A stretch of DNA of 64,000 nt from Verrucomicrobiia bacterium (lineage in GTDB: Bacteria; Patescibacteriota; Saccharimonadia; Saccharimonadales; JAGQNK01): positions 155,346 to 219,345 of the forward strand of contig DATHJY010000013.1 in NCBI GenBank assembly GCA_035489575.1, given 5' to 3'. Shown here piece after piece: positions 12,689 through 62,606 of this stretch (its first letter is position 1; every line of letters begins with the position of its first letter). The notes under the pieces were generated by a model that saw only the letters and a program-made list of their open reading frames with translations, was not told where the DNA came from and searched no databases. The translations under genes were made by a program, and so were the position numbers.

Positions 12689-12745
12689 CTATCGTTTCGC
12701 TGCTATTACAGCTCATCAGCACAATTATTACTTTGTGGACGATAG
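12689..12745 (-). ncRNA. hammerhead ribozyme, type III (HHR-4)
   Basis: Minus-strand RNA: CUAUCGUC|CACAA-AGUAAUAA-UUGUG-CUGAUGA-GCUG-UAAUAG-CAGC-GAAA-CGAUAG. Stem III is 7 bp (12739-12745 with 12689-12695), C17 is at 12738, and the core is intact. It lies 104 nt 3' of the stop of ORF 12850-14094. Confidence 0.85.
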
Positions 12746-14478: not shown

Positions 14479-17415
14479 TTATCTGAGGCGAATGACTGTT
14501 TCGTCGCCACTCGTCGTGGAGGGCTTTGGGGGCTCTGGCGTGGGCTTGTCCGTCTTGGGAGCAGGAGTTTCAGATCTCCGAGGCTCGGCAGGCTTGGGGG
14601 CCGGCCTTTCTTCGCCTCTTTCTCTTGGCTGGCGGTTGCCAGTGCGATCGGATTGCTCGGTAGACACGCCGGGTTTTTTGCGACGTCGGCTGCGCGTTCG
14701 TTTGCGCTTGGGCCTATCAGCCTCTTCACTGGCTGGCGCCAGAGGCGGTACGGGTATAGGCTTAGGCTCTGGTTTGGGTTTTTCCGGGGGCGCTGCAGGT
14801 CTGGGTGCTTCAGCGGGGGCTGGTACAGCAGGTGCAGCTGCTTCAGATGCAGGCTTGGGCTGTGCCATGTGCGTCACGGCTTTGCCGAGGTCTTTTACTT
14901 TAGTGACGGTATCTTTCACTTTCTTTTCTACTGGCCGAACGACGGCAGCTACTGCTGCTGGTGCAGCAGGTGCAGCCACGGGCTTATGTGCTGGCGTGGC
15001 AGGCTTGGGGGCCTGGTGAGCAGGCTTTGGATTGTTATTTGGATTATTAGCAGGCCTGGGCTTGTCCTGATGGTGACCTTTTGGCTTGGTGTTGGTCTGG
15101 ATGGCTTTTGCTATTTGTTCCGGCGTTAGGTAGCGTTCACGAACGTAATCTTCTATGTCGGATTTCTTATAAGCAAAGTTTTCACGGCTGGCAGCAATAA
15201 TCTGCTCGCTGTAGTCTTGATTCTGGGGCGGTAGTTCTAGCGAGGTGGCAGAGAAAGCCTGCACCTTTTCACCCTCTATGGTCATGCTGATAACAAAGTG
15301 ACGGTTATGCATGTGCACCAGGTCATGTTCTTCAAACTTTGGTTCGAAATACTTGGTCATAATACGCGAGTCGTCGGCACTCATACGGAAGCCAACTATA
15401 GAACCCACGTTGCCAAAGACAGCATCTTTGACTTCCATGCTCATCTGGGCAATGTACTGGTTGGCTACGGTCAGATTTAGGCCGTACTTACGAGCCTCGG
15501 ACAAGATGGTAGCAAACGAGTCAGTGGCAAAGTTCTGGAATTCGTCCACATACAGATAGAAAGGCACACGCTCGCTCAGGTCCATATCTGCCCGGGACAT
15601 AGCTGCCATCTGAATCTTGGTTACCAGCAGCGCACCTAGCAGGCTGGCGTTATCTTCGCCGATCAGGCCACGTGACAAGTTGACGATCAAAATCTTGCGC
15701 TCGTCCATGATCTTGCGGATATTAAAGCTGCTGTGCGGTTGGCCGATGATATTACGAACAGTAGGGTTGGCGGTAAAGGCACCTACTTTGTTCAGCACTG
15801 GCGCTACGGCCTCGGTGGCAAATTTGTCGTTCCAGCTGGCAAATTCTACATTCCAGAAGTTGACCACTACGGGGTCAGTCACGTGCTTTATAACGTCCTG
15901 GCGGAACTTTTTCTCTGTCAGCATGCGGGTGATATCCAACATGGTCGCTTCCGGGAACTCCACCAGCGCCAGCAGAGTGTAGCGCAAGATATATTCCAAA
16001 CGTGGACCCCATGACTCGAACATACGCTTGAGCACCCCAATCAGTTCCGACACAATGTGAGTACGCAAGTTGGGGTCAGAGACCTCTAGGGGGTTAAAGG
16101 CTACCGGGAAATTAGTATCAGAAGGGTTAAAATAAATAACGTCGTTCACCCGCGCCTCAGGGACGCGGCGCATGACGCTCAGGGCATAGTCACCATGAGG
16201 GTCAATAATCGCAAAGCCAAAGGGACTATAAATATCAGATATACTCAGTAGCTCGAGCAGACCAGACTTACCAACACCGGTCTGTCCAATAATATACAAG
16301 TGACGTCCACGGTCGTTCCGTGGCAGACCAAACATAGAGTTATGGCCCCTAAAGTTGGTGACAGCAACGGGGCTGATAGTGTCTCGGTTCTTCTCGTTTA
16401 CAATGGGCAGGATAGCCGGTGGTTCGGCCGTCTTGGCCCGAGCCCACAAAATATTCGGCGTCTCTACGTTGGTATGGGGCAGGTGATACAAGCTGGCAAC
16501 TTCTTCGATGTTACAGACAAACCCCCGGCGGCCAACAGTGCGCGCCCGATACAACTCGACATACCGAGGGTCCTCACCCAAATACTTGGCCGTAAAACCG
16601 TTCAGGTAGGTGGTGTTGAACTGTTTGAAGCTGGCAGTAATAGCCTGAATACGCATACGGGCCTGGGGCGCACTGGTGTTGCCACGGTAAATCAACCGCA
16701 CGGCAGTTTCGTAGGCTAGCTTGTGGCTTTTGGCTTCGGCCGCACTGGCCCGGGCTGTTTCGTGCTCGGCCAGCTTGGGCGCGCTGCCACCACCGCCACC
16801 CTCACCGGGCGGTTCCCACAGTACTTTGATCATGCCAAACCCCATAGGCCCGGCGCCGCCGCCACGAATACCGGCTACGTATGATTCGCTTCGTTTATGC
16901 CAGTTGGAAGGGGCGGGGCGTATCACCACCTGCAACCAGGCCTCTTCGTCTTCGTCAAACTGGGCCAGGGCAGCTGTTATGGCCGCCAGAGGATCAACCT
17001 CGAAGCTCGGAAAGGTCTTGATAGGCAAAGCCTCGTTGGCAGTAAACTTTATCTCTGCTGCTGCCTGGACAACCACCTGGGCGTCGGCCGTGTGGGTATA
17101 ATCATCAACTTCGGCAATGTGCACGTCTGGGTATTGGGCATAAATTTGTTCTTCGACAAAGCTCTTCAAATGTTCGGGCACCCAGATATAAAAGCCAATG
17201 CTTTTGTTTTGCACGGCAATCTCAAAACTCACCCGCTCGTGCACCTCTGTTTTGAAAAAAGAAGCCTGGGCTGTGGTTAATAAGCCATGCAAGCTGGCAA
17301 ACATCTGCTCTGCGGCCAGTTCCTTCTTTTCGTTGGTACGGGGGACTTGCAGCAGCAGGACGGTGCCAGGGTCGGTGGCGACGGGATTAGATAATTTTCC
17401 GAACAGTGAACCCAT
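14479..17415 (-). CDS. VirD4/TraG/TraD-like type IV coupling ATPase with low-complexity C-terminal tail
   Basis: Walker A GQTGVGKSG and a TraD/TraG C-terminal block (VDEFQNFATDSF...EARKYGLNLTVANQY). ATG 17415 is preceded by GGAGGGG. The last ~230 aa are Pro/Ala/Lys/Glu-rich. Confidence 0.8.
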   Translation of the reverse strand: MGSLFGKLSNPVATDPGTVLLLQVPRTNEKKELAAEQMFASLHGLLTTAQASFFKTEVHERVSFEIAVQNKSIGFYIWVPEHLKSFVEEQIYAQYPDVHIAEVDDYTHTADAQVVVQAAAEIKFTANEALPIKTFPSFEVDPLAAITAALAQFDEDEEAWLQVVIRPAPSNWHKRSESYVAGIRGGGAGPMGFGMIKVLWEPPGEGGGGGSAPKLAEHETARASAAEAKSHKLAYETAVRLIYRGNTSAPQARMRIQAITASFKQFNTTYLNGFTAKYLGEDPRYVELYRARTVGRRGFVCNIEEVASLYHLPHTNVETPNILWARAKTAEPPAILPIVNEKNRDTISPVAVTNFRGHNSMFGLPRNDRGRHLYIIGQTGVGKSGLLELLSISDIYSPFGFAIIDPHGDYALSVMRRVPEARVNDVIYFNPSDTNFPVAFNPLEVSDPNLRTHIVSELIGVLKRMFESWGPRLEYILRYTLLALVEFPEATMLDITRMLTEKKFRQDVIKHVTDPVVVNFWNVEFASWNDKFATEAVAPVLNKVGAFTANPTVRNIIGQPHSSFNIRKIMDERKILIVNLSRGLIGEDNASLLGALLVTKIQMAAMSRADMDLSERVPFYLYVDEFQNFATDSFATILSEARKYGLNLTVANQYIAQMSMEVKDAVFGNVGSIVGFRMSADDSRIMTKYFEPKFEEHDLVHMHNRHFVISMTIEGEKVQAFSATSLELPPQNQDYSEQIIAASRENFAYKKSDIEDYVRERYLTPEQIAKAIQTNTKPKGHHQDKPRPANNPNNNPKPAHQAPKPATPAHKPVAAPAAPAAVAAVVRPVEKKVKDTVTKVKDLGKAVTHMAQPKPASEAAAPAVPAPAEAPRPAAPPEKPKPEPKPIPVPPLAPASEEADRPKRKRTRSRRRKKPGVSTEQSDRTGNRQPRERGEERPAPKPAEPRRSETPAPKTDKPTPEPPKPSTTSGDETVIRLR

Positions 17416-17826
17416 CTTAAGCCACCCCTCCAGCCTCAGCCCGTTCTGACGGCACAACAAGGTCCCCACAAAATCTGTTTTGTGGGGTGTGTGCGCTTTG
17501 CCAGTCTTGCTTGTCGGCGTACCTACGGGTACGCCTTCGTACAAGAACTGACAAATCGTACTTATCAGAATAGGCTTTGCTTAACAGACGAGGGGCTTTA
17601 GGAGGATTCATAGACATATCAATTATACGGTGTTTTGTTTATGGTAACTACCGGAACACGCCAGAGGAGTGGGTTTCCGGGCAGCCAACACCTGAATACA
17701 CTGAGCCAAAAATGTATTTAGGTGTTGTCAGGAGAGAGGAGAATGCGCGAATGGGTGAAGGAGCCGTAGGGCCACAATGCACGCACCGCGCACCTCCTCG
17801 CTCCTGGGAGCTCATGTAGAAGTGGG

Positions 17827-25371: not shown

Positions 25372-25863
25372 GTGGAACTATTACTCAATGCCTCCATCGC
25401 CGAGGACTCCATCCAGGACGCCGTCCCCACCATCGACAACATCGTCAGTGGTGGCCTGACCAACGGCAGCGACAAGCTGTACATCGTTGCCGGCTTCCGC
25501 AACCCGGACGGTACGGGTGGCATCCTGACCACCTTCGCCTACGGCGACAGAAGGGGATGGAAGTACCCCATCGACGACATCGCCCTCGGCAAGTTCGACA
25601 TCTCCGCAGCCACCGGCTTGCCCTCGCGCCTGGTACAGACCCAGGAACCCGAGCGTCTTCGTGACGGCGACGTCAAGTACGGCGGCAGCTGGGTCCTGGG
25701 ATCCATCGTGGTCGCCGCCTCCGGGTTTCCGTCCTACTGGGACGAGCAGATCTGTGCCATCATCTGCCACATCATGAGGGGCCGGGTGCACGTGCTGCGC
25801 GAGCGCCTAGAGAAGGCAGCAGGCGAGGACGTCTACCTCGTGCGCTCCCGGCTGGCGGCCTAG
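25372..25863 (+). CDS. hypothetical protein, possibly GlcG/DUF336-like (high-GC island I6)
   Basis: GTG start with AAGGAG 4 nt upstream; 163 aa. YGGSWVLGSIVVAASGFPSYWDEQICAI weakly resembles DUF336 blocks. Confidence 0.6.
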   Translation: MELLLNASIAEDSIQDAVPTIDNIVSGGLTNGSDKLYIVAGFRNPDGTGGILTTFAYGDRRGWKYPIDDIALGKFDISAATGLPSRLVQTQEPERLRDGDVKYGGSWVLGSIVVAASGFPSYWDEQICAIICHIMRGRVHVLRERLEKAAGEDVYLVRSRLAA

Positions 25864-26061: not shown

Positions 26062-26547
26062 GTGCAAGAAGCCAAGTGGGCTGCCATCGGAGCTGTCTGG
26101 GCCGCGATCGTCCTGATCGTGTCAATCGGCGGCGGCGGCGGCGGAGTGCTGATCGTCGGCATTTGTGTGCCGCTCATCATCTTCGGCATCGTCCGTCTTG
26201 TCAATCGGTTCCGCAACAAGCCCGCCGAGAAGAAGACACTGACACCGGATGACAGGCGACGCCACGTCCGCAAGGAAGACCAAGCCACAGTGGACGCCCT
26301 GATCGACGCCGTCCAGGAACGGATCGACGACTACACCACCTCGACAGTGCCCGACTGGGAGACCTCCTACTCGCTGGTCGACAACGCCAGCAAGCAAGTG
26401 CCGAGGGCAATCGTCGAGAACGTCAGGGTCCACTTCGAGGACAACGGCTGGGAGACCGGTATCAAAGACGACGAACTCGTCGTACGCGACCCAAAGAACG
26501 CGCCCAAGCCAGCCACCCCGCCGACTGCGCCGTCCACCACCAGCTAG
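26062..26547 (+). CDS. hypothetical membrane protein (high-GC island I7)
   Basis: GTG start with AAAGGAGA upstream. Two N-terminal TM segments around a GGGGGG tract, then a cytoplasmic domain and a Pro-rich C-terminus. Confidence 0.65.
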   Translation: MQEAKWAAIGAVWAAIVLIVSIGGGGGGVLIVGICVPLIIFGIVRLVNRFRNKPAEKKTLTPDDRRRHVRKEDQATVDALIDAVQERIDDYTTSTVPDWETSYSLVDNASKQVPRAIVENVRVHFEDNGWETGIKDDELVVRDPKNAPKPATPPTAPSTTS

Positions 26548-28778: not shown

Positions 28779-29411
28779 GTGTCCACGACAACCACCATAC
28801 ACACACCGTGTACGGTCAACATGCGCGTCTTCGACCTCAGCGCCGACGACGCACCCGGCCATGTCGTCTTCGGCCGACTGGCCTTCCAGATCGACCAGCT
28901 CTCCCCGACTTCGGTCGTGGCACTGCAGCAGGTGCTCAACGGTCACCGCGGGCAGCTCACCAAGGCATGCCTGGCAGACATCGTCATCTGGGCTACCGAT
29001 CACGCCACCAAGCAAGAGGGCCGACTCCGTCTGCTGCTCAGCAGCCAAGCCGATCGAGAAGGTCGCCGGATTGGGATTGGCCTGGTCAATCCGACCCTTC
29101 CCACCGTCTGCACGGTTGCCGTCAGCGTGTTCAACGACGACGGAGCCATCAAGTCCTTCGAGTTGCCAGATGTGCCCACCGACACGGTCCGCTACATCCA
29201 GCGGGGGATGAGCCACTTCAGTGGCGTACTCACCAACCCCTGTGGCGATCTGATGCATGCCTGGGCCGTCATGTGCTGTCCTCATGTCGTACCAACGCTC
29301 CTGACCGAGCTGCGGGGCTACCACAACATCGGCTTCAAGATCGACGCCGTTCGGATGGAGCACACCACGGTGTTCGTGGCCGAACCACCTAGCGAGGACA
29401 TCATGCCATAA
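28779..29411 (+). CDS. hypothetical soluble protein (high-GC island I8)
   Basis: GTG start with AAGGGA upstream; 210 aa; GC3-rich. The antisense 279-aa ORF is a shadow ORF. Confidence 0.65.
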   Translation: MSTTTTIHTPCTVNMRVFDLSADDAPGHVVFGRLAFQIDQLSPTSVVALQQVLNGHRGQLTKACLADIVIWATDHATKQEGRLRLLLSSQADREGRRIGIGLVNPTLPTVCTVAVSVFNDDGAIKSFELPDVPTDTVRYIQRGMSHFSGVLTNPCGDLMHAWAVMCCPHVVPTLLTELRGYHNIGFKIDAVRMEHTTVFVAEPPSEDIMP

Positions 29412-35015: not shown

Positions 35016-35345
35016 ATGACACTTCCTCTCGCATCCGAGCGCCTGCGCGACGAATCCGCCGCCAAGTGGCGATGGGCCTTCCTACAGTTCATCCTGCTCC
35101 TGGGCGCCCTCGCCGCCGCAGTCTGGGTGAGTCTGGACGTTACCGTCTGGATCCCCAAGGGAACCGAGCCCGATCCCGGCTTCGTTGATACGTTCGCGAT
35201 CTGCGGCTGGGTCGTCGTGGCATTCATGTTGCTCCGTTCGATCCCGGCAACCATCATGGAAGCCAAGCTCCTCTACCAGCGAGCCAAGCTGGCCATCGTC
35301 AGCGAACATGCCGTTCGCAGCGGGCCAACCACCACACCACGCTAA
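35016..35345 (+). CDS. 109-aa membrane protein, 2 TM (high-GC island I9)
   Basis: ATG preceded by GAGGT at 5-nt spacing. Contains WAFLQFILLLGALAAAVWV and FAICGWVVVAFMLL. GC3-rich. Confidence 0.65.
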   Translation: MTLPLASERLRDESAAKWRWAFLQFILLLGALAAAVWVSLDVTVWIPKGTEPDPGFVDTFAICGWVVVAFMLLRSIPATIMEAKLLYQRAKLAIVSEHAVRSGPTTTPR

Positions 35346-43231: not shown

Positions 43232-44023
43232 ATGTTGAAGCTCTTCCGCAAGTGGTGGAAGTACCTGACGGCCAAGCTGTCCTCGTCGTTCAGCGAGAAC
43301 GCGGACCCCAAGGTCCAGCTGGAACAGGCTCTCATCGAGGCCCAGGACCAGCAGCGGCGGCTGAAGGAGCAGGCGGCCAACGTCATCGCCCATCAGAAGC
43401 AGACCGAGATGCGGCTCAACCGCACCATGGACGAGCTCGAGAAGGTCAACACCAACGCCGTCCAGGCCGTCAAGATGGCCGATCAGGCTGCCGTGGCGGG
43501 TGACGAGGCCAGGGCGTCGCAGTACACCAACACCGCGCAGACCTTCGCCACCCGGCTGATCCAGCTCGAGAAGGAGGTCGCCGACCTCAAGACCATGCAG
43601 CTGCAGGCGACCGGCGCAGCCGACCAGGCCAAGAAGGCCGTCTCGCAGAACGCCATGGCCCTCCAGCAAAAGCTGGCCGAGCGTCAGAAGCTGCTGTCGC
43701 AGCTGGACCAGGCCAAGATGCAGGAAACCATGAACAAGGCCATGTCGTCGCTGTCCGAGACGGTCGGCCAAGACGTGCCCACGCTCAACGAGGTCCGCGA
43801 CAAGATCGAGGCGCGCTACGCCAAGGCCAAGGGCGCCGCCGAGCTCAACGCCGACTCCGTCGAGGTCCACATGCTCGAGGTCGAGGCCGCGACCATGGAC
43901 GCCGAAGCCACGACCCGTCTGGACGAGATCAAGGCCCAGCTCGGCATCGCGACCGCCCCGGTCACCGACGCCATCCCGGCGATCCCGGCGACCCAGCCGC
44001 AGGAAGCCGAGTCGGGCAACTAG
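43232..44023 (+). CDS. pspA: PspA/IM30-family protein (high-GC island I10)
   Basis: N-terminus MLKLFRKWWKYLTAKLSSSFSENADPKVQLEQALIEAQ with long coiled coils, typical of PspA/IM30. GC3-rich; the antisense 215-aa ORF is a shadow ORF. Confidence 0.85.
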   Translation: MLKLFRKWWKYLTAKLSSSFSENADPKVQLEQALIEAQDQQRRLKEQAANVIAHQKQTEMRLNRTMDELEKVNTNAVQAVKMADQAAVAGDEARASQYTNTAQTFATRLIQLEKEVADLKTMQLQATGAADQAKKAVSQNAMALQQKLAERQKLLSQLDQAKMQETMNKAMSSLSETVGQDVPTLNEVRDKIEARYAKAKGAAELNADSVEVHMLEVEAATMDAEATTRLDEIKAQLGIATAPVTDAIPAIPATQPQEAESGN

Positions 44024-46577: not shown

Positions 46578-46603
46578 TTGTGCTCCGTGCACCATCGAAA
46601 GGA

Positions 46604-47062
46604 ATGCCCGTGTCTTCTGCCCCCGTCACCAGCTTTCCCCAAGAGCTCCGCCGGGTCCGACCCATTGTCTGGATCGGGTCCGCGCTCGTCTGCTTCTTCC
46701 TCGGCGTGGGACTCACCCTGTGGGTGACCCATAACGACAGGATCGAGGTCGACAAAATCAGCACCGTGGTCTACAGCCATGGACCGGCCGAACGCGCCAG
46801 TTACATCGCCGAATTCACGGTGACCGACTGCTACCCTGCGGATGCCGATTTCAGCGGACCCACCTGGAGCGCAACCCAGACCGAGTTGTCCAGGAACTAT
46901 CCCTCCGCACGTTTCGACTTCCACGGTGGTGACCCCAAGGGATTCGTCACCGTTAGGCTCGACCTGGACGGCTTCAAGGAAAGTCCGGAGCTTCGATTGG
47001 TCGCCAACGACATCCACCGTGTCTTGCACAGCAAGCACGCCTGCGAGCCCCCGAAGTCCTGA
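46604..47062 (+). CDS. membrane-anchored/secreted hypothetical protein (high-GC island I11a)
   Basis: N-terminal TM segment (IVWIGSALVCFFLGVGLTLWV), then a soluble domain. Start ATG 46604, or TTG 46580 / GTG 46610. Confidence 0.6.
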   Translation: MPVSSAPVTSFPQELRRVRPIVWIGSALVCFFLGVGLTLWVTHNDRIEVDKISTVVYSHGPAERASYIAEFTVTDCYPADADFSGPTWSATQTELSRNYPSARFDFHGGDPKGFVTVRLDLDGFKESPELRLVANDIHRVLHSKHACEPPKS

Positions 47063-47109: not shown

Positions 47110-47193
47110 ATGGGTTACGTCATCGGTGTCATCGTGGTCGCAGCTGCTGCGGCCTTCGGCTGGAACAAGTACAAGCAGAGCCGCTCGGCCTAG
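47110..47193 (+). CDS. 27-aa hydrophobic peptide (island I11b); not in ORF track
   Basis: ATG preceded by AAAGGGGGG. Sequence: MGYVIGVIVVAAAAAFGWNKYKQSRSA. GC3-rich. Confidence 0.45.
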   Translation: MGYVIGVIVVAAAAAFGWNKYKQSRSA

Positions 47194-47211: not shown

Positions 47212-47260
47212 GGTGGTAGCCGGCTCGTTCGTGCCTTTGGCGCAACAGCCGGCTGCCACC
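47212..47260 (+). other. 14-bp GC-rich hairpin in the 3' UTR of island I11
   Basis: ggtggtagccggct (47212-25) pairs with agccggctgccacc (47247-60), including one U.G wobble valid only on the + strand. Confidence 0.5.
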
Positions 47261-47368
47261 AGGCCGCCCCTTCATACATCATCAAACTTTTACAGGCTCC
47301 TGGCAGTCAGCGACCACACAGACCGCACCCTTGGTGCATTCTTTAATACCTCCTGCCAGTCCTGTACC

Positions 47369-47434
47369 CGCTTCTATGAATGTGCGATACCTTTCGCAAA
47401 ACTCATACTGATGAGTCCAAGAGGACGAAAAGCG
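47369..47434 (+). ncRNA. hammerhead ribozyme, type III (HHR-1)
   Basis: CGCUUC|UAUGA-AUG-UGCGA-UACCUU-UCGCA-AAAC-UCAUA-CUGAUGA-GUCC-AAGA-GGAC-GAAA-AGCG. Stem III is 5 bp (47369-73 with 47430-34), C17 is at 47374, and the G10.1-C11.1 pair is present. Confidence 0.9.
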
Positions 47435-47449
47435 AGTACAATTTGATAT

Positions 47450-47620
47450 ATGGAAACCAAAACAATGGTCTGGATTGGCCTAGGTGTCGGCAGTACCGTA
47501 GGGGGCTTGCTGGGTACCATGCTAGACCATGGAAACTTTCTAGGCCTGTGGTCACTAGCCCTTGGCACCCTGGGTTCACTTATAGGCATCTGGGCCGGTT
47601 TCAAACTGGCTAATATGTAA
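47450..47620 (+). CDS. 56-aa Gly-rich small membrane protein; not in ORF track
   Basis: METKTMVWIGLGVGSTVGGLLGTMLDHGNFLGLWSLALGTLGSLIGIWAGFKLANM. Backbone-like GC content; it starts 16 nt after HHR-1. Confidence 0.55.
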   Translation: METKTMVWIGLGVGSTVGGLLGTMLDHGNFLGLWSLALGTLGSLIGIWAGFKLANM

Positions 47621-47700: not shown

Positions 47701-49986
47701 ATGGCAAAAAATCTCGTTATTGTAGAAAGTCCGGCCAAGGCCAAGACCATAGAGAAATATCTTGGCAAGGATTACTCGGTCAAAAGCAGCTTTGGACACA
47801 TCCGTGACCTGCCTAAAAAAGGCATGTCTATAGATATTGCCAAAAATTTTGCACCCACCTACGAAATCAGTCCAGAAAAGAAGAAGGTCGTTGCCGAACT
47901 CAAAAAAGCCCTCAAAGGCGCCGAAGTCTGGCTGGCAAGCGACGAAGACCGCGAAGGGGAGGCTATAGCCTGGCATTTATGCGAGGCTCTCAAACTAGAC
48001 CCCAAGAAAACCAAACGCATTGTCTTCCACGAAATTACCAAGTCCGCCATAGAGGCAGCCATAGAAAACCCCCGCACCGTAGACATGAATCTAGTAGACG
48101 CTCAGCAAGCTCGACGCATCCTAGACCGTCTAGTAGGGTACGAACTCAGCCCCGTCCTCTGGAAAAAGGTCCGTCCGGGCCTCAGTGCTGGTCGCGTCCA
48201 GTCGGTAGCCGTCCGCCTCATTGTCGAGCGCGAGCGCGAGATAAAAGACTTCCAGACACAGAGCAGCTTCAAGGTTACTGCCACATTCCATACCCCAGAG
48301 AAAGCCGAGCTACCGGCAGAATTAACAGATAAGATCGTAGACGAAGAGAAGGCCGAAGCCTTCCTGCAAGCCTGCGCAGGCGCTACCTTTACCGTCAAAG
48401 ACGTCGCCACCAAACCCGGCACGCGCAACCCGGGCGCCCCCTTTACTACCTCTGTCCTACAGCAAGAAGCCGCCCGTCGCTTGGGCTATAGCGTCAAACA
48501 AACCATGACTCTAGCTCAGCGTTTATACGAAAACGGTCATATCACTTACATGCGTACCGACAGTACCATCCTGTCCGGCCTGGCTATAAAGGCAGCCGAA
48601 GACTACATCACCAAAGAATACGGTGCCCAGTATCATCAGGTTCGCCAATACAAGACCAAAGACAAGGCCGCCCAAGAGGCCCACGAAGCCATTCGCCCCA
48701 CAGACTTCCGCAAGGTAGCCGCTGGCGATGATCCCCAGCAAAAGAAGCTATACGACCTTATCTGGCGCCGCGCCCTGGCTAGCCAAATGGCCCCCGCCCA
48801 GATAGACCGCACCGAAATACTTATAGATGTCAGCGACCGCACAGAACAATTCTTGGGCAAAGGCGAGATCGTCAAATTCGACGGTTGGTTCAAGGTGTAC
48901 GGCGGCGGCAAAGAAGATGTCCTGTTGCCACCAGTACAAGTAGGCGAGAAGCTAGCGCTGCAAGCCGCAGAGGCCCATCAGACCTTTAGCCGCCCGCCAG
49001 CCCGCTATGGCGAGGCCGGCCTGGTGCGCAAGCTCGAAGAGCTGGGCATCGGTCGCCCAAGCACCTACGCGCCAACCATCAGCACCATCCAGACCCGTGG
49101 CTACGTAGAAAAGGGCGACTTGCAGGGAGAAGAACGGACAGTAGTACACCTAGCACTCCTGAAAGGCGCCGTCCTGCGCGACGAACAAACAGAGGTACAT
49201 GGGGCAGATCGCAGCAAACTCACTCCCACCTCTGCGGCAGATGTAACTACCGACTTCTTGGTTAGGCACTTCGCTTCAGTTGTCGACTATGATTTTACTG
49301 CCACCGTCGAAGAAGACTTTGACGCCATTGCTGACGGCAAGCGCAAATGGGAAGACATGCTCAAAGAGTTTTATAAAGATTTCCACGCCCTCGTGAAAGA
49401 AGGCGAGAACGTCAGCCGCGAAGAAACTTCTCAGGCACGCGTACTTGGCCCAGACCCCAAGAGCAGCAAGCCTATTATCGCTCGTTATGGCCGCTTTGGA
49501 CCAATGCTCCAACGGGGAGAAACCGAAAGCGAAGAAAAACCAGACTTTGCACCGCTTCCAGAAGGCGTAGACCTAGAGGACGTCACATTAGAGCAAGCAC
49601 TCGAGATGTTCAAGCTTCCACGCACCGTCGGCACGACAGAGCAGGGCGAGGAGATAAAATCCAACATCGGCCGCTACGGCCCGTATATCCAGATAGGCAA
49701 GCTGTTTGTGTCCATCAAAGGTCACGACCCTATGAAGATTACCGAGGAAGAAGCCCGAGAACTATACGCTGCCAAGCTCAAACAAGAGGCAGAGAGGCAC
49801 ATAGCCGACTTCGGCAAGATCAAGATACTGAACGGCCCCTATGGTCCGTACGTAACAGATGGCACGAAGAACGCCCGTATCCCCAAAGAAACAGACGCCA
49901 CAAAGCTAACAGAGACAGACGCCAAAAAAATACTGGACGAAGCACCCGCCAAAAAGCGCTTCGGCAAGCGTGCCGCTAAGAAGTAA
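47701..49986 (+). CDS. topA: DNA topoisomerase I (type IA)
   Basis: Toprim N-terminus MAKNLVIVESPAKAKTIEKYLG, the catalytic-Tyr region ITYMRTDS, and a basic C-terminal tail. Confidence 0.95.
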   Translation: MAKNLVIVESPAKAKTIEKYLGKDYSVKSSFGHIRDLPKKGMSIDIAKNFAPTYEISPEKKKVVAELKKALKGAEVWLASDEDREGEAIAWHLCEALKLDPKKTKRIVFHEITKSAIEAAIENPRTVDMNLVDAQQARRILDRLVGYELSPVLWKKVRPGLSAGRVQSVAVRLIVEREREIKDFQTQSSFKVTATFHTPEKAELPAELTDKIVDEEKAEAFLQACAGATFTVKDVATKPGTRNPGAPFTTSVLQQEAARRLGYSVKQTMTLAQRLYENGHITYMRTDSTILSGLAIKAAEDYITKEYGAQYHQVRQYKTKDKAAQEAHEAIRPTDFRKVAAGDDPQQKKLYDLIWRRALASQMAPAQIDRTEILIDVSDRTEQFLGKGEIVKFDGWFKVYGGGKEDVLLPPVQVGEKLALQAAEAHQTFSRPPARYGEAGLVRKLEELGIGRPSTYAPTISTIQTRGYVEKGDLQGEERTVVHLALLKGAVLRDEQTEVHGADRSKLTPTSAADVTTDFLVRHFASVVDYDFTATVEEDFDAIADGKRKWEDMLKEFYKDFHALVKEGENVSREETSQARVLGPDPKSSKPIIARYGRFGPMLQRGETESEEKPDFAPLPEGVDLEDVTLEQALEMFKLPRTVGTTEQGEEIKSNIGRYGPYIQIGKLFVSIKGHDPMKITEEEARELYAAKLKQEAERHIADFGKIKILNGPYGPYVTDGTKNARIPKETDATKLTETDAKKILDEAPAKKRFGKRAAKK

Positions 49987-49991
49987 AATCA

Positions 49992-50020
49992 TTGACTTTT
50001 AGCTAATTTTATACTATAAT
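49992..50020 (+). promoter_or_regulatory. consensus sigma70 promoter TTGACT-17-TATAAT for island I12
   Basis: -35 at 49992-49997 and -10 at 50015-50020. The leader hairpin GAGUG...CACUC follows. Confidence 0.65.
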
Positions 50021-50087
50021 ACACTTGAGTGATTTTCCACACTCGTCAAATGGAAATGGACCCCCAAGCACCCCTGGGAGAAACCCC

Positions 50088-50597
50088 ATGCTTTCCAATC
50101 GAACCCTCGGCCTCATGGCCGGCATCATCGTGACGCTCATCGGCATCACGCTCTGGCTCAGCTGGAACTTCGGCTACTGGAGCGACGACGGCCCGCGTGT
50201 CGACCACACCAGCCTGTTCCTGCCCAGCGCAATCTGCGGTACCCTCGGCATCATCGCCGCGGCCATCATCATGATCGCGACCATCTACGGCCCCAAGTCG
50301 GTGTACGGCAATCCCGGATTCGTCAAGCATCTCGCAAACGAGTGCGCTGGCTGGGGAGCTGTTGTCCTGATCCTGCCGTCCTTCATGGGCGCCCTCATGG
50401 CTGGGACCGACATCCCCAACAACGTGTCCAACGGTTCTGTCCCGTTCCACTGGGCCACCTTCGGCAGCTACTCCGGTAGCCTCCTCGCTGGCCTGCTGGT
50501 GACCAACCTGTTGCTGTCCCTGGTGCTGTACTTCTGGGCAGACCGGCCTGGTGACCTGACCATCGACAGCTGGCTGAGCCGAGTCGTCCAAGCCTGA
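50088..50597 (+). CDS. 169-aa 4-TM membrane protein (high-GC island I12)
   Basis: ATG 50088 is preceded by GGGAG, and the GC shift begins ~50060. The antisense 181-aa ORF is a shadow ORF. Confidence 0.7.
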   Translation: MLSNRTLGLMAGIIVTLIGITLWLSWNFGYWSDDGPRVDHTSLFLPSAICGTLGIIAAAIIMIATIYGPKSVYGNPGFVKHLANECAGWGAVVLILPSFMGALMAGTDIPNNVSNGSVPFHWATFGSYSGSLLAGLLVTNLLLSLVLYFWADRPGDLTIDSWLSRVVQA

Positions 50598-50657
50598 GGG
50601 CTGGCCCTAGGACAAGGCAACACGCCGCCGTGCATGATACCTGGAGGGTCCAGGACG

Positions 50658-50713
50658 TGAAGTGGTAGAGGTGATGGATCATCCATCGACAACCCCTCAT
50701 ACCTCCCACTTCA
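50658..50713 (+). repeat. 56-nt perfect direct repeat (copy 1), structured 3'-UTR element
   Basis: Identical to 51422-51477. Outer stem ugaagugg/ccacuuca encloses GAGGUGAUGGAU-C-AUCCAUC-(GACAACC bulge)-CCUC. Confidence 0.85.
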
Positions 50714-50720
50714 CGCCCAC

Positions 50721-50790
50721 ACAGTTTCTATGAATGTGCAGCCAACACTGCAAGAGTCATACTGATGAGTCCAAGAGGACGAAAAGCTGT
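50721..50790 (+). ncRNA. hammerhead ribozyme, type III (HHR-2)
   Basis: ACAGUUUC|UAUGA-AUG-UGCAG-CCAACA-CUGCA-AGAG-UCAUA-CUGAUGA-GUCC-AAGA-GGAC-GAAA-AGCUGU. Stem III is 7 bp including one G.U, C17 is at 50728, and the distal stem I covaries with HHR-1. Confidence 0.9.
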
Positions 50791-50809
50791 AAAACTTCTT
50801 TGACATTAG

Positions 50810-50818
50810 TGCTATAAT
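50810..50818 (+). promoter_or_regulatory. extended -10 promoter TGcTATAAT for island I13
   Basis: TG at 50810-11 and hexamer at 50813-18. The adjacent TTGACA (50800-05) is only 7 nt away, too close to serve as its -35. Confidence 0.5.
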
Positions 50819-50878
50819 ATTTTGCGAGTGATTCGTTTCTGCACTCACAAATAACCCTCGAGGCCTCTTGGAGGAATC

Positions 50879-51373
50879 ATGTTCAGCATGCTGACGTTCC
50901 GTCGCATGACACTCGCCACGCTCGGCTTGGGCGCGCTGCTTTTCCCGATCTGTTGGTTTGCCGCCTACGGAACCCAGGAATTGTCCAGGGCACCTCATGG
51001 TGACCTATTCAGCGCTGGCGTCATATCCGGCATTATCGGTGTGGTGATCGCCTACGTGCTCCTCATGGGCACCATCCATGTCGAAGATGCCGACTTCGGT
51101 GAAAGTCAGTTCCTGGGACACCTGATGGCAGCCTTCGGGATCGTCGCAGCTGTGCTGTTCGTGTTGGGCTGCATAATCGCCGGCTTCGTCTCCAGCTCCC
51201 CCGAAGGTGGTCCCATCGACACGGGCGTGTTCGGCACCATCGTCATCAGCCTACTCGCCAGCTACCTCACCACCTTTTTCGTCCTGGTGGGTGCGTTCGG
51301 CGACGAGACGTGGATCGGTGGCAAGAAGACTGACAACAACCTCTTCCGGGACGGTGTTATCAGCGGGCCCTAA
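50879..51373 (+). CDS. 164-aa 4-TM membrane protein (high-GC island I13)
   Basis: ATG preceded by GGAGG at 5-nt spacing. GC3-rich (63% GC in the first 60 nt by hand count). Confidence 0.7.
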   Translation: MFSMLTFRRMTLATLGLGALLFPICWFAAYGTQELSRAPHGDLFSAGVISGIIGVVIAYVLLMGTIHVEDADFGESQFLGHLMAAFGIVAAVLFVLGCIIAGFVSSSPEGGPIDTGVFGTIVISLLASYLTTFFVLVGAFGDETWIGGKKTDNNLFRDGVISGP

Positions 51374-51421
51374 GGCACACACTGGCCAACAGAGAGTTAC
51401 AAATCCTGGAGTACCAGGTCA

Positions 51422-51477
51422 TGAAGTGGTAGAGGTGATGGATCATCCATCGACAACCCCTCATACCTCCCACTTCA
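51422..51477 (+). repeat. 56-nt perfect direct repeat (copy 2)
   Basis: Identical to 50658-50713. Confidence 0.85.
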
Positions 51478-51483
51478 TGTCAC

Positions 51484-51533
51484 AGCTTCTACAAATGCGA
51501 TTTGTACTGATGAGTCCAAAAGGACGAAAAGCT
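51484..51533 (+). ncRNA. hammerhead ribozyme, type III (HHR-3)
   Basis: ACAGCUUC|UACAAAU-GCG-AUUUGUA-CUGAUGA-GUCC-AAAA-GGAC-GAAA-AGCU. Stem III is 5 bp and C17 is at 51489. Confidence 0.9.
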
Positions 51534-51564: not shown

Positions 51565-51593
51565 TTGACAAATACTGTTTTTATTATTAAAAT
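51565..51593 (+). promoter_or_regulatory. sigma70 promoter TTGACA-17-TAAAAT upstream of island I14
   Basis: -35 at 51565-70 and -10 at 51588-93, followed by a ~225-nt leader. Confidence 0.55.
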
Positions 51594-51820: not shown

Positions 51821-52081
51821 ATGAGCATCACCACCCTCGCCAGCATCCCCGCCACCTACAACACCCCCACGTACTACGCCCCCGCCTACCAGCCGCGGGT
51901 CGACCTCGTGTCGATCAGCCTCACCCTGGTGTTCGAGCGGCAGAGCGTGATCCGCCTGGGCTACGCCTGGATCGATGGCTACTTCGTCGCCATCGACCTC
52001 CTGGTCGTCACCCAGTACGCCGTGGTCATCGAGAAGACCGCCCTCCTCGTCGACGGCGACATCGTCGTCTTCATCGGCTAG
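51821..52081 (+). CDS. 86-aa hypothetical protein (high-GC island I14)
   Basis: ATG start, GC3-rich, beta-rich hydrophobic sequence. Weak Shine-Dalgarno site. Confidence 0.5.
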   Translation: MSITTLASIPATYNTPTYYAPAYQPRVDLVSISLTLVFERQSVIRLGYAWIDGYFVAIDLLVVTQYAVVIEKTALLVDGDIVVFIG

Positions 52082-61691: not shown

Positions 61692-62606
61692 CTATTTTTG
61701 TTTCGCTGCGGCACGCAATTTTGCACTGCGCGACCGCGGATTGAAAACAAGTTCATTTGACTCAGCCATAATTGGTTGCTTACTCAGCAACGTTAGGACG
61801 GCGTCGTAGCGGTTACCAGCCAGCTCGTTAAATGCTTGTTTAACGATGCGGTCTTCCAAGCTATGGAAGCTGATAACCACTATTCGCCCTCCCGGGGCAA
61901 GCAGGTCTATCCAGATTGGTATGGCTTGCTTGATTTGGTCAAGTTCGCTGTTCACCGCTATTCGGAGCGCTTGGAACGTCCTGGTAGCTGGATGGACTTT
62001 GCTGTGCCCCGGCCAAGCTGGGGCTATGACAGCTGCAAGTTGTTGGGTTGTTGTTATTGGCCTATGGCTTACTATCAAGCGAGCTATTTTATTCGCCCGT
62101 GGCTCTTCGCCATACTCATGGATTAGATTACTTAACTCCTCCTGGTCATAGCTATTCACTATGACTTCGGCTGTTAAGCTTTGTGTCTGGTCCATGCGCA
62201 TATCAAGTGGTCCATTCAGCTTCAAACTGAATCCTCGACTGGCATTGTCAAGATGTGGTGACGAAACACCCAAATCGGCCAAAATCAAATCGAATTGTCT
62301 ACCTGCTGCTTGCAGTTCTTGGCTTGCACCCAGAAAGTCTTTTTGCACTATCTGGACGCCACCACCTTTGAACTCTTTTTGCAGATGTTCAATTGCATTT
62401 TGATCGCGATCTACAAGAGTAGATTTGCTTGGTTGTAAGGTACGTTCCAGTATTGCCCTAGCATGTCCGCCGTATCCTGCCGTTAGGTCCAGGTACGATT
62501 CCCCTTTTTTTGGTTGGAGATAGTGTACGGCTGCTTCAAGCAGCACTGGAAAATGTGAATTAGTTTGATTTTGGTTGTTTGTTTTGGTGTTTTTGTTTTC
62601 AGTCAC
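61692..62606 (-). CDS. rsmH: 16S rRNA (cytosine1402-N4)-methyltransferase
   Basis: HFPVLLEAAVHYL...DLTAGYGGHA and DLGVSSPHLD motifs. Confidence 0.9.
   Translation of the reverse strand: MTENKNTKTNNQNQTNSHFPVLLEAAVHYLQPKKGESYLDLTAGYGGHARAILERTLQPSKSTLVDRDQNAIEHLQKEFKGGGVQIVQKDFLGASQELQAAGRQFDLILADLGVSSPHLDNASRGFSLKLNGPLDMRMDQTQSLTAEVIVNSYDQEELSNLIHEYGEEPRANKIARLIVSHRPITTTQQLAAVIAPAWPGHSKVHPATRTFQALRIAVNSELDQIKQAIPIWIDLLAPGGRIVVISFHSLEDRIVKQAFNELAGNRYDAVLTLLSKQPIMAESNELVFNPRSRSAKLRAAAKQK

Follow-up and report, generated by a model that had tools for sequence, protein, structure and literature searches.

Hammerhead sites and gene modules in the window

The window (the whole stretch of DNA analysed, 64,000 nucleotides) holds four candidate type III hammerhead ribozymes, HH1 to HH4, each located downstream of a GC3-rich open reading frame (ORF). 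HH1, HH2 and HH3 fall within 4.2 kb on one strand, and the ORFs linked to them are unrelated or only distantly related. Neighbours of these arrays in the window and its relatives are pth, pspA, pcm, dprA, topA, a sigma-like gene, ftsQ and murG. The features used below are listed with the evidence for them in brackets.

12689-12745, minus strand: HH4, type III, with a GUC cleavage site, C17 at 12738 and a GCUG/CAGC stem II (descriptor, covariance model R1)
12850-14094, minus strand: ORF4, 414 aa, GC3-rich (0.82) membrane protein upstream of HH4 (codon-position GC)
46580-47062, plus strand: ORF1, an orphan of high GC3 (0.77), predicted to have a single membrane helix at the N-terminus, HH1 following its 3' end (codon-position GC)
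47291-47366, plus strand: long 3' UTR hairpin immediately 5' of HH1 (fold of 47245-47445)
47369-47434, plus strand: HH1, the type III hammerhead flagged at the outset (sequence, fold, descriptor, model R1, ortholog in the relative L243)
47374-47375, plus strand: predicted self-cleavage site of HH1, between C17 (47374) and U1.1 (47375) (position relative to the invariant core)
47375-47407, plus strand: extended stem I of HH1 (folds, compensatory changes in HH2 and the L243 orthologs)
47450-47620, plus strand: 56-aa ORF, glycine-rich, membrane, 16 nt past HH1 (present or absent among close relatives)
47701-49986, plus strand: topA, a conserved housekeeping gene with variable hammerhead-bearing modules on both sides (Pfam, synteny)
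50025-50597, plus strand: ORF2, GC3-rich (0.81) multi-pass membrane protein with a strong promoter-like site upstream at 49992-50020
50650-50713, plus strand: structured 3' UTR block of ORF2, 64 nt (repeated at 51414-51477, 97% identity)
50721-50790, plus strand: HH2, type III, C17 at 50728, with the same extended stem I subtype as HH1 (descriptor, model R1, L243 ortholog)
50879-51373, plus strand: ORF3, GC3-rich (0.77) membrane protein and distant ORF2 paralog (module 50791 to about 51535 absent in L243)
51414-51477, plus strand: second copy of the 64-nt 3' UTR block (repeat of 50650-50713)
51484-51533, plus strand: HH3, type III, in the canonical family form with a 7-bp stem I, C17 at 51489 (RF00008, 42.3 bits; model R1)
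51821-52081, plus strand: ORF5, GC3 0.99, with its own promoter-like site at 51565-51593, the last module of the topA-sigma array and without a hammerhead

The linked ORFs have few relatives. ORF1 retrieved only itself from 5.8 billion proteins, with no family matches, and is 34% identical at the protein level to its positional ortholog in L243; ORF2 and ORF3 share no more than 28% identity as proteins. ORF4 has only four homologs in the same collection, and both of those for which DNA was compared (L241 and L242) are followed by a hammerhead; a distant relative of ORF4 (23% identity) is encoded upstream of the L223 hammerhead. Searches of Pfam, PHROGs, PADLOC and NCBIfam returned nothing meaningful for the linked ORFs, the sole PHROG match being a weak one to the 56-aa ORF. 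Because ORF1 and ORF4 are essentially without homologs among the 5.8 billion proteins, transfer of the linked genes from known high-GC donors is unlikely.

The possibility that the upstream GC-rich regions are non-coding was rejected, since in frame on the ribozyme strand GC3 is far higher than GC1 or GC2; the long antisense ORFs were dismissed as shadows. A second high-GC ORF that the earlier note had placed at 47110-47193 found no support, since this stretch is not conserved in the closest relative (L243). Promoter-like sites are located directly after topA and after HH3, and no terminator-like site was found after HH2 or HH3. HH4 lies between convergent genes and faces gltX at its 3' end. 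Other GC3-rich orphan genes of the window terminate in hairpins that no hammerhead accompanies, so the ribozyme is not required for this class of gene.

Sequence and predicted fold of HH1

The HH1 RNA reads CGCUUC/UAUGA AUG UGCGA UACCUU UCGCA AAAC UCAUA CUGAUGA GUCC AAGA GGAC GAAA AGCG, with the slash at the predicted cleavage site. As expected for a type III hammerhead, the 5' strand of the core (C3-A9) is CUGAUGA at 47408-47414, G12 A13 A14 is GAA at 47427-47429, A15.1-U16.1 is formed by A47430 with U47373, and position 17 is a C (47374), non-G as required; the core-flanking pairs are also standard (G-C at G10.1-C11.1 and U-A at U1.1-A2.1). Stems I and II are capped, the latter with 4 bp and an AAGA loop, and the 5-bp stem III is open. 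Stem III can be extended past a C/A mismatch by a further 4 bp (GUAC at 47364-67 with GUAC at 47436-39), and with these extra pairs the element spans 47364-47439. Stem I consists of a proximal 5-bp helix (47375-79 with 47403-07), an internal loop that retains the AUGUG motif of the family, and a distal 5-bp helix (47383-87 with 47394-98) that is maintained by compensatory changes in HH2 and the L243 orthologs.

The minimum free energy (MFE) fold of 47360-47442 is exactly the HH1 three-way junction (-25.5 kcal/mol, z = -4.77, with none of 200 shuffles as stable). Sequence and folds agree with the earlier note, which had described a full set of invariant core bases with C17 at 47374, three helices in type III order with stem III open, and a stem I carrying an internal loop and a distal 5-bp helix. 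In a 201-nt context the MFE fold contains stems I and II of HH1 without stem III, which suggests that folding may depend on the order of transcription. In the family, the conserved U-G-Y-G-U of loop I and the AAAA/AAGA of loop II are, at the level of sequence, located at the distance from the core expected for a possible tertiary contact between stem I and loop II, the kind of contact that fast cleavage at physiological Mg2+ requires.

Evidence that HH1 is a genuine hammerhead

A core-only pattern (CTGATGA-N6-30-GAAA) matched four times in the window against 0.55 expected. A full descriptor demanding the core, a base other than G at position 17, a stem II of 3 bp or more and stems I and III of 4 bp or more identified exactly four sites, compared to 0.007 per simulated 64-kb window in 300 Markov simulations. 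Searching the window with Rfam at gathering thresholds resulted in two tRNAs only, and in E-value mode the hammerhead matches were weak or misaligned and no twister, pistol, hatchet or other ribozyme was found. The check that the earlier note had proposed, an Rfam score above the gathering threshold, thus formally went against it, as HH1 scored 20.8 bits with Hammerhead_3 (RF00008) against a threshold of 48.5, the alignment breaking at the long stem I. This miss is uninformative because nearly the whole family is likewise below the threshold, with only one of about 27 members in 18 related loci above it; the threshold is an annotation cut-off and no biochemical criterion.

A covariance model (R1) of the family was built from 117 hammerheads of other Patescibacteria genomes with the window sequences excluded. 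HH1 scored 56.2 bits (E of about 1e-14, whole model), HH2 56.1, HH3 67.1 and HH4 29.6 bits. A fifth match (61820-61874) was discarded as a false positive, since it lies within a coding region and lacks the core. The score of HH1 and a conserved ortholog in L243 that differs by neutral or compensatory changes uphold the identity first proposed for the site. HH1 is a new member of a known ribozyme class and, judged from its sequence, 47369-47434 very probably encodes a genuine self-cleaving type III hammerhead. A chance or decayed hammerhead-like sequence without activity would fit the low Rfam score, but is extremely improbable in view of the four sites where 0.007 were expected, the perfect core, the compensatory changes in the conserved ortholog and the E-value of the independent family model.

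A hammerhead subfamily in Patescibacteria

The core-only family pattern CTGATGAGTCCAARAGGACGAAAA was found at 120 or more genome loci, and Patescibacteria lineages are named in 69 of 80 titles among the matches listed. Of the 120 listed loci, 111 also have stem I, stem III and a base other than G at position 17 correctly placed, though the pattern does not demand them. The exact family pattern gave no matches in IMG/VR (2.9 million viral contigs). In an alignment of 117 distinct sequences (A3), where pairing is partly imposed by the descriptor and the unbiased figure is the 111 of 120 core-only loci with stems I and III, 96.1% of cells pair (70.5% when shuffled), double-sided changes number 548 (158 shuffled), and covariation scores 0.71 (shuffled 0.19, slid registers about 0.08). 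Double-sided changes occur at 13 of 17 pairs, and none of 500 shuffles reached the observed score. At 97 of 111 hammerhead loci, a single copy is present within about 8 kb.

In the family signature, U-U-H17 comes after stem III, and the 7-bp stem I ends in U and carries a G-Y-G-U loop, together with the sequence CUGAUGA-GUCC-AAAA-GGAC-GAAA-A. HH1 and HH2 represent a subtype, also found at L245, L248 and L249, in which a small hairpin (16 nt in HH1) is inserted in loop I and the 5' AUGUG is retained. Compared with known type III hammerheads (RF00008; sTRSV and phage), the catalytic core, the helix order and the open stem III of HH1 are identical, and sTRSV and many recovered phage copies have the same stem II plus core, CUGAUGAGUCC-NNNN-GGACGAAA. 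The 7-bp stem I typical of phage copies is shared by HH3. The Patescibacteria family differs in having A at position 15.2 (GAAAA), whereas phage copies have C or U, in its own loop I signature U-G-Y-G-U, and in the 16-nt hairpin insertion in loop I of HH1 and HH2. HH1 is assigned to a large, so far unannotated hammerhead subfamily that has so far been seen almost only in chromosomes of Saccharibacteria and other Patescibacteria (candidate phyla radiation, CPR). A literature search for hammerheads in Saccharibacteria, the candidate phyla radiation or Patescibacteria found nothing relevant.

Association with the upstream gene and a hairpin

In gene calls made with crude custom ORF heuristics, the gene nearest upstream of the hammerhead is on the same strand in 87 cases versus 14, its stop codon lies a median of 100 nt from the ribozyme (interquartile range 70-138), its GC content is 8.3 points above that of its own locus versus 0.0 for 789 other genes (p = 2e-25), and its GC3 is 0.68 versus 0.49. 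By the same calls, 27 of 89 downstream genes are convergent, HH4 and gltX included, and downstream starts lie at widely varying distances (10th-90th percentile 36-356 nt), so that the link to the upstream stop is the tighter one. ORF4 homologs with 77% and 43% identity are followed by a hammerhead about 100 nt past the stop, the latter in a different neighbourhood, and pairs such as L157/L181 and L165/L220 share the gene and the hammerhead and not the downstream genes. A protein family common to the genes upstream or downstream of the hammerheads was rejected, as the upstream ORFs are almost all singletons and the Pfam families are scattered.

Predicted RNA structure is concentrated on the upstream side. 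The mean fold z is -2.39 for the 60 nt before the hammerhead, compared to -0.68 for the 60 nt after it and -0.62 for an in-ORF control, and in 107 of 125 cases a structure of at least 6 pairs ends no more than 12 nt upstream of stem III. The ribozyme is tied to the upstream gene rather than to topA. The earlier note, supported as regards HH1 itself, omitted the three other copies in the window and the family context, which are what link the ribozyme to the upstream gene and not to topA.

Comparison with relatives

In L243, whose TopA is 95% identical, the positional ortholog of HH1 has kept the three stems and the core along with the unusual loop I insertion of 16 nt, and across the HH1 orthologs and paralog, stem I, its distal helix and stem III are kept via compensatory changes. 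The stretch 47247-47435 is 81% identical to L243, far above the identity of the ORF proteins. A hammerhead is also encoded upstream of topA in L122, L133 and L239 as well as L243, though the upstream ORFs differ; L244 has none directly before topA. In L133 a homolog of the 56-aa ORF follows the hammerhead at the same 16-nt spacing as in the window. This ORF is missing in L243, and the left edge of the gap is the last base of HH1 stem III.

Among relatives with TopA 80-95% identical (those at 89% and 80% compared by gene tables), the dprA-topA and topA-sigma gaps contain 0 to 8 small, co-oriented, Pfam-less genes. The window and L243 differ by two indels, the 56-aa ORF and the ORF3 module (module 3), with an edge within a few nt of a hammerhead 3' end, and in L165/L220 and L128/L195 homology ends exactly at the hammerhead 3' end. 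L243 joins an HH2-type body to the flank that follows HH3 in the window, and a recombination or ligation junction at C17 was rejected on this basis. In four relatives, the genes called up to 5 kb from the arrays gave no integrase-family Pfam match, and the neighbours identified in the window are housekeeping genes. The gene, the hairpin and the hammerhead behave as one unit, retained, acquired, lost and relocated as a whole at hypervariable chromosomal hot spots (dprA-topA and topA-sigma).

Comparison with known systems

Hammerheads that occur in clusters in bacteria and prophages (Perreault et al. 2011, PMC3088659; de la Pena et al. 2017, PMC6155905) resemble HH1 to HH3 in the tight spacing of several same-strand ribozymes around small genes that are not conserved and vary in identity, and they have been proposed to cut long transcripts into gene-length mRNAs, as is suggested here. 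Whereas prophage-associated hammerheads have phage or integrase genes nearby, the sites described here are chromosomal hot spots between Patescibacteria housekeeping genes, with one weak PHROG match and no match in IMG/VR. The GC3-rich linked gene, the hairpin directly before the ribozyme and the mostly single-copy loci are new regularities relative to the prophage clusters.

In integron arrays, too, small genes that are mostly orphans and deviate in composition stand co-oriented at a fixed locus, with a structured conserved element (50-70 nt) after each or every few genes and a content that varies among close relatives. In integrons that element is the attC hairpin, an imperfect inverted repeat with conserved R and L boxes at the 3' end of the cassette, whereas here it is a catalytic RNA motif; several modules here have their own promoter-like sites, unlike integron cassettes, and the IntI tyrosine recombinase found beside an integron array has no counterpart among the integrase-family searches of the four relatives. 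The arrays of the window are not integron members, and the likeness would be one of function. As presented in PMC6765202, the work of Felletti et al. 2017 on 3' UTR ribozymes and engineered insulators describes self-cleavage in a UTR that sets mRNA ends and decouples parts of a transcript. The cases described there are reporter constructs or isolated natural twisters, whereas the hairpin-plus-hammerhead arrangement here is natural and lineage-wide, with a presumed effect on expression.

Proposed function and alternatives

The function of bacterial self-cleaving ribozymes is treated as an open question in reviews (PMC6155905, PMC6765202), and the roles proposed for bacterial hammerheads and twisters include the processing of polycistronic mRNAs and action in 3' UTRs (PMC3088659; PMC6765202). 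We favour, with moderate confidence, the reading that the hammerhead makes mRNA 3' ends and insulates accessory-gene modules from their neighbours. Transcription of a GC3-rich accessory gene (ORF1 in this case) would run through a stable hairpin and, right after it, the ribozyme as the end of the 3' UTR. HH1 would then fold and cut after C17 (47374), leaving the accessory mRNA with the hairpin, a short tail and a 2',3'-cyclic phosphate, and freeing it from the RNA transcribed next, here that of the 56-aa ORF and topA, which would begin with the 5'-OH ribozyme body. Cleavage could in this way affect the stability of the accessory mRNA as well as the downstream genes. The earlier note had predicted that upstream transcripts would be cut after 47374 with the ribozyme body remaining on the 56-aa ORF and topA RNA, which is consistent with the 16-nt spacing and with the finding of no promoter-like site between HH1 and the 56-aa ORF.

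For HH1 itself, a role at the 5' end is inseparable from one at the 3' end, because the next genes are co-oriented, begin 16 nt away without a predicted promoter, and a hammerhead recurs before topA. It is nonetheless unlikely that HH1 serves mainly in 5'-end processing or insulation, giving the small-ORF/topA mRNA a defined 5'-OH leader whatever is inserted upstream. The recurrence before topA in four other genomes despite differing upstream ORFs, the spacing to the small ORF shared with L133 and the lack of a promoter-like site in that interval would all suit such a leader, but downstream genes are convergent in almost a third of cases (HH4 facing the 3' end of gltX), the hammerhead stays with the upstream ORF when the downstream context differs, L244 has no hammerhead directly before topA, and the downstream distances are broad where the upstream link is tight. 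Such a leader would be a natural analogue of engineered ribozyme insulators. A further reading, that HH2 and HH3 excise a 761-nt RNA (50729-51489) which circularises in the manner of retrozymes or viroid-like RNAs, is very doubtful. HH2 and HH3 do lie in direct repeats (the 64-nt block plus ribozyme) around ORF3, a 0.75-kb segment, which recalls plant and animal retrozymes (PMC4918200, PMC7229834), and the sequence predicts perfect pairing between the 5' strand of stem III in HH3 and the 3' strand of HH2. The segment is, however, an ordinary protein gene preceded by a ribosome-binding site, its surroundings showed no reverse transcriptase, and Perreault et al. searched clustered bacterial hammerheads for circular or spliced products without finding any (PMC3088659). 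As a general explanation, retrozymes or circular RNA were rejected, since most family loci have one ribozyme.

The behaviour of the modules raises the question of whether the hammerhead is a boundary or attachment element of mobile gene cassettes, with insertion and excision at the 3' edge of the ribozyme, either at the DNA level, with the conserved 45-50 nt as a portable site, or via RNA that is cleaved, ligated and copied back into DNA; on this view self-cleavage would serve mobility, beyond expression alone. The variable gaps on both sides of topA, the indel edges and homology ends at hammerhead 3' ends, the gene-plus-hammerhead modules in unrelated contexts and the upstream ORFs that are almost all mutually unrelated and mostly without Pfam matches point in this direction. 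We still regard it as distinctly improbable: the junctions amount to a handful, a conserved hammerhead inflates the apparent end of homology, loss of module 3 can be explained by recombination between the repeated 3' UTR and hammerhead, no integrase-family match lies near the arrays of the four relatives, and strict conservation of the catalytic core needs RNA catalysis and not mobility. The RNA-ligation version is also contradicted at the cleavage site by the HH2-type body and post-HH3 flank of L243. It would be a long shot to propose, in full, that Patescibacteria possess ribozyme-delimited accessory-gene cassettes in which the hammerhead 3' edge is the junction at fixed hot spots and the ribozyme also processes the cassette mRNA, an integron-like function with a hammerhead in place of attC.

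Implications

More than 100 hammerheads are present in Patescibacteria chromosomes, almost all of them invisible to standard Rfam annotation, so that genome annotation in this group misses a common RNA element. The family has a fixed architecture, in which a GC3-rich, mostly orphan gene is followed by a hairpin and then a hammerhead, without a link to known phages. This regularity turns a vague idea of mRNA processing into specific questions: whether the ribozyme sets 3' ends, whether it protects or exposes the message, and whether it shields topA and other housekeeping genes from genes inserted beside them. Some Saccharibacteria can now be cultivated and transformed, which should put a dead-ribozyme point mutant within reach. 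The link to hypervariable arrays bears on the gain and turnover of surface and accessory genes in these reduced, host-dependent bacteria and, if the modules did prove to be cassettes bounded by the ribozyme, bacterial hammerheads would act in genome plasticity as well as in expression.

Four type III hammerheads in the window

The RNA of the originally flagged site (HH1, 47369-47434, +) reads CGCUUC/UAUGA-AUG-UGCGA-UACCUU-UCGCA-AAAC-UCAUA-CUGAUGA-GUCC-AAGA-GGAC-GAAA-AGCG. As the earlier note had read from the sequence, the invariant hammerhead positions are complete (C3-A9, G12-A14, the A15.1-U16.1 and G10.1-C11.1 pairs, and the cleavage-site nucleotide C17 at 47374), and the architecture is type III, with stems I and II capped and stem III open. 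Folding 47360-47442 gives precisely this three-way junction as the minimum-free-energy structure (z = -4.77, 200 shuffles), and stem III can be extended past a C/A mismatch by four pairs (47364-67 with 47436-39).

Searching the window for CTGATGA-N6-30-GAAA resulted in four matches, where 0.55 are expected. A full descriptor, which requires the core, all three stems and any base but G at position 17, accepts each of the four as a complete type III hammerhead; in simulated windows it averages 0.007 sites, against four in the real one, and a chance origin is excluded for practical purposes. Beyond these four, R1, a covariance model derived from hammerheads of other genomes, gives no credible match in the window. 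A site at 61820-61874 (+; 15.9 bits, E = 0.04) was rejected as a false positive, as it lies within a 304-aa minus-strand ORF and has no catalytic core.

Hammerheads of the window, all matching the full descriptor, with R1 scores and upstream genes
47369-47434, +, HH1, 56.2 bits, after ORF1 (46580-47062, +) and before topA (47701-49986, +)
50721-50790, +, HH2, 56.1 bits, after ORF2 (50025-50597, +)
51484-51533, +, HH3, 67.1 bits, after ORF3 (50879-51373, +)
12689-12745, -, HH4, 29.6 bits, after ORF4 (12850-14094, -)

HH1 and HH2 have an unusual long stem I in common, and compensatory changes separate their distal helices and stem III. At Rfam gathering thresholds, the window contains two tRNAs and no hammerhead. 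The earlier note had held that the lack of such a match would count against the ribozyme, and formally it is lacking: in E-value mode HH1 scores 20.8 bits with Hammerhead_3 (RF00008), whose gathering threshold is 48.5, in an alignment interrupted by the long stem I. In the same mode HH3 reaches 42.3 bits, the sole match to HH2 is a misaligned type I, and HH4 has none. Since just one of about 27 family members from 18 related loci passes the RF00008 threshold, the miss reflects the model more than the site.

A hammerhead family of Patescibacteria

One genome per species was scanned with the core-only pattern CTGATGAGTCCAARAGGACGAAAA, resulting in at least 120 loci. Among 80 titles listed for these loci, 69 are Saccharibacteria or other Patescibacteria, eight are just 'bacterium', and three belong to other phyla. 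The pattern covers the core and stem II alone; stems I and III and a non-G17 are in register in 111 of the 120 loci listed. An alignment of 117 distinct copies, with the window sequences left out, was the source of R1. Its consensus is a variable stem III ending in U-U-H17 and a 7-bp stem I, the last 5' base of which is an invariant U followed by G-Y-G-U, and then CUGAUGA-GUCC-AAAA-GGAC-GAAA-A. Paired cells make up 96.1% of the alignment (70.5% shuffled), 548 cells have double-sided changes (158 shuffled), and the covariation score is 0.71 (0.19 shuffled, about 0.08 in slid registers), part of the pairing being imposed by the descriptor. On these sequences, the family's helices covary very strongly.

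HH1 is aligned end to end by R1, with 16 nt inserted in loop I; this subtype also occurs in locus L155 and three metagenome contigs, with unrelated distal helices. At L158 (about 6462-6523 in plus-strand coordinates, 1478-1539 in the reverse complement), the 3' core segment is duplicated in tandem (GGACGAAAAGGACGAAAAGG), which creates two alternative stem III registers. At several loci (L136, L143, L157, L172 and others), tRNA genes lie within 1-3 kb of the hammerhead.

A 'persistent relationship with bacteriophages' has been reported for bacterial hammerheads (PMC6155905, PMC3088659). A general pattern allowing any loop II matched at least 120 IMG/VR contigs, with both type II and type III copies, and the classic GUGA-loop core CUGAUGAGUCCGUGAGGACGAAAC is present in one contig of 359 nt. 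In these phage copies, GAAA is followed by C or U; the Patescibacteria pattern, with GAAAA, has zero matches in the 2.9 million viral contigs of IMG/VR. As the window's hammerhead-linked genes also have no meaningful PHROG match, the family departs from the reported phage relationship.

Association with the upstream gene

Genomic context was examined for 132 hammerheads from other genomes and the window, with genes called by a crude ORF heuristic. The nearest upstream gene is on the same strand in 87 cases and on the opposite strand in 14, and its stop codon lies a median of 100 nt from the hammerhead (interquartile range 70-138). Its GC content exceeds that of the locus by 8.3 points, compared with 0.0 in 789 other genes (p = 2e-25), and its GC3 is 0.68 versus 0.49. 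The downstream gene is convergent in 27 of 89 cases; HH4 adjoins the 3' end of convergent gltX. Four observations tie the hammerhead to the gene that precedes it, namely their common strand, the tight spacing from the stop codon, downstream genes that are convergent, and the inheritance of hammerhead and upstream ORF together.

Between the two lies a structured element. The 60 nt that precede the hammerhead have a fold z-score of -2.39, compared with -0.68 for those that follow and -0.62 for an in-ORF control, and in 107 of 125 cases a hairpin with six or more pairs ends no farther than 12 nt from stem III. The ORF1 3' UTR contains a long hairpin (47291-47366). The ORF2 and ORF3 proteins share only 28% identity, and their 3' UTRs have in common a 64-nt structured block with 97% identity (50650-50713, 51414-51477), indicating either strong constraint or recent homogenisation. 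This block can fold into a long hairpin.

The four linked ORFs of the window have a GC3 of 0.77-0.82 in the ribozyme-strand frame (0.56-0.60 for dprA, topA and gltX), a bias that marks them as coding; long antisense ORFs over them were dismissed as shadows by codon-position GC. Hammerhead-linked genes are likewise GC3-rich in lineages whose background GC ranges from 0.31 to 0.58. The upstream proteins are nearly all mutually unrelated, and the few Pfam matches are scattered (glycosyltransferases, NUDIX, DUF350, Csx3, Tad4, Y-family polymerase). Among 5.8 billion clustered proteins, ORF1 has no relative but itself, and ORF4 has four, itself counted. Directly upstream of ORF4 and HH4, 14479-17544 (-) encodes a protein of 1021 aa that combines HerA/DUF87 domains with those of type IV secretion coupling proteins (TrwB/TraG); at L174 a hammerhead is placed upstream of its homolog.

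GC3-rich ORFs (0.76-0.99) with no Pfam match
78-800, +, long hairpin 3'
25372-25863, +, long hairpin 3'
26062-26547, +, long hairpin 3'
28779-29411, +, long hairpin 3'
35016-35345, +
51821-52081, +, GC3 0.99

The hairpins are from the four flanks read, some with a T-run; neither a hammerhead nor another Rfam ribozyme was found downstream of any of the six. High GC3 is not confined to orphan genes, since the conserved pspA/IM30 (43232-44023, +) has a GC3 of 0.95 in a genome of 53% GC, and it may be a mark of highly expressed genes in this lineage.

Modules at hypervariable arrays

Homologs of ORF4 at L242 (77% identity, same neighbourhood) and L241 (43%, different neighbourhood) both have a hammerhead about 100 nt past the stop codon, with all three stems changed compatibly, and a 23%-identical relative at L223 is also followed by one. 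Several genome pairs have gene and hammerhead in common (60-80% protein identity) with unrelated downstream genes. In these comparisons, gene, hairpin and hammerhead behave as a unit.

The window belongs to a Saccharimonadales genome, but its TopA is labelled Verrucomicrobiae in NCBI ('MAG TPA: type I DNA topoisomerase [Verrucomicrobiae bacterium]'). Every close relative (72-95% identity) is from Saccharimonadales, gene content and synteny match Saccharibacteria, and the source bin is probably mislabelled. Relatives were compared across the two gaps flanking topA.

Contents of the dprA-topA and topA-sigma gaps, by TopA identity (P0008 and P0015 from gene tables)
Window, 100%: one module and a 56-aa ORF; three modules
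L243, 95%: one module; one module, one further ORF, contig end
P0008 contig, 89%: none (328-nt gap); two genes
L244, 84%: five small ORFs, two hammerheads; three small ORFs, one weak hammerhead match
P0015 contig, 80%: at least eight small co-oriented ORFs before topA, dprA beyond view; four small ORFs

L243 keeps orthologs of HH1 and HH2, loop I insertion included. Relative to the window, a stem I A/C mismatch is a G-C pair, a distal-helix C-G is U-A, and N7 is C instead of U. Loop II is AAGA in both HH1 (47420-47423) and HH2 (50774-50777) and AAAA in both orthologs, which suggests either that copies in one genome change in concert (gene conversion) or that the mutation arose in parallel. ORF1 and its counterpart (L243:4040-4564) share only 34% protein identity, compared with 95% for TopA and 81% nucleotide identity for the 3' UTR and hammerhead; in the pair L131 and L194, identity is 33% for the upstream ORF and 90% for the downstream ORF. 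While staying in place, hammerhead-linked ORFs can diverge extremely fast.

Two insertions/deletions separate the window from L243, the 56-aa ORF (47435-47619) and module 3 (50791 to about 51535), each of which has an edge a few bases or less from the 3' end of a hammerhead. The glycine-rich membrane ORF of 56 aa is absent at L243:4920-4921, the gap starting at the last paired base of HH1; the more distant L133 has a homolog (4131-4311) 16 nt 3' of a hammerhead. In two further pairs, L165 with L220 and L128 with L195, homology likewise ends at the hammerhead 3' end.

Proposed role and alternatives

On the most economical reading, the 3' UTR of an accessory gene would end with the hammerhead. 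By cleaving itself after C17, the ribozyme would leave an mRNA ending in the hairpin and a short tail with a cyclic phosphate, and would detach the accessory mRNA from downstream transcription; that the hammerhead cleaves, and that cleavage sets stability or insulation, we infer. Strong promoter-like sites follow topA (49992-50020) and HH3 (51565-51593), and neither HH2 nor HH3 is followed by a hairpin and T-run resembling a terminator. At HH1, any read-through RNA that includes the small ORF and topA would begin with a 5'-OH ribozyme body, as the earlier note proposed; our scan found no promoter-like site in the 16 nt between HH1 and the 56-aa ORF. Earlier work has proposed processing of polycistronic RNAs by bacterial hammerheads and a function of ribozymes in bacterial 3' UTRs (PMC3088659, PMC6765202). 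The reading given here agrees with these proposals, but the architecture of this family is far more regular, and its setting is not phage-related.

It is possible that HH1 acts mainly on the RNA downstream, at its 5' end, and hammerheads also precede topA in L122, L133, L239 and L243, but such a role does not fit the whole family. The hot spots and the insertion/deletion edges suggest a cassette boundary or attachment site; few junctions stand behind it, no recombinase is in sight among the genes called within 5 kb of the arrays in four relatives, and the L243 comparison contradicts a junction placed at the cleavage site. RNA circularisation is unlikely, because 97 of 111 hammerhead loci among the matches listed have a single copy.

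Bacterial hammerheads and their clusters around small variable genes have been on record since 2011 (PMC3088659), and HH1 belongs to a known ribozyme class. Full-text literature searches yielded nothing relevant on hammerheads with Saccharibacteria, candidate phyla radiation or Patescibacteria. The near-restriction of the subfamily to Patescibacteria among the matches listed, its absence from viral collections and invisibility at Rfam thresholds, the rule of GC3-rich orphan gene, hairpin and hammerhead, and the placement at hypervariable arrays between housekeeping genes all appear undescribed. The family offers a clean system for asking what bacterial hammerheads do.
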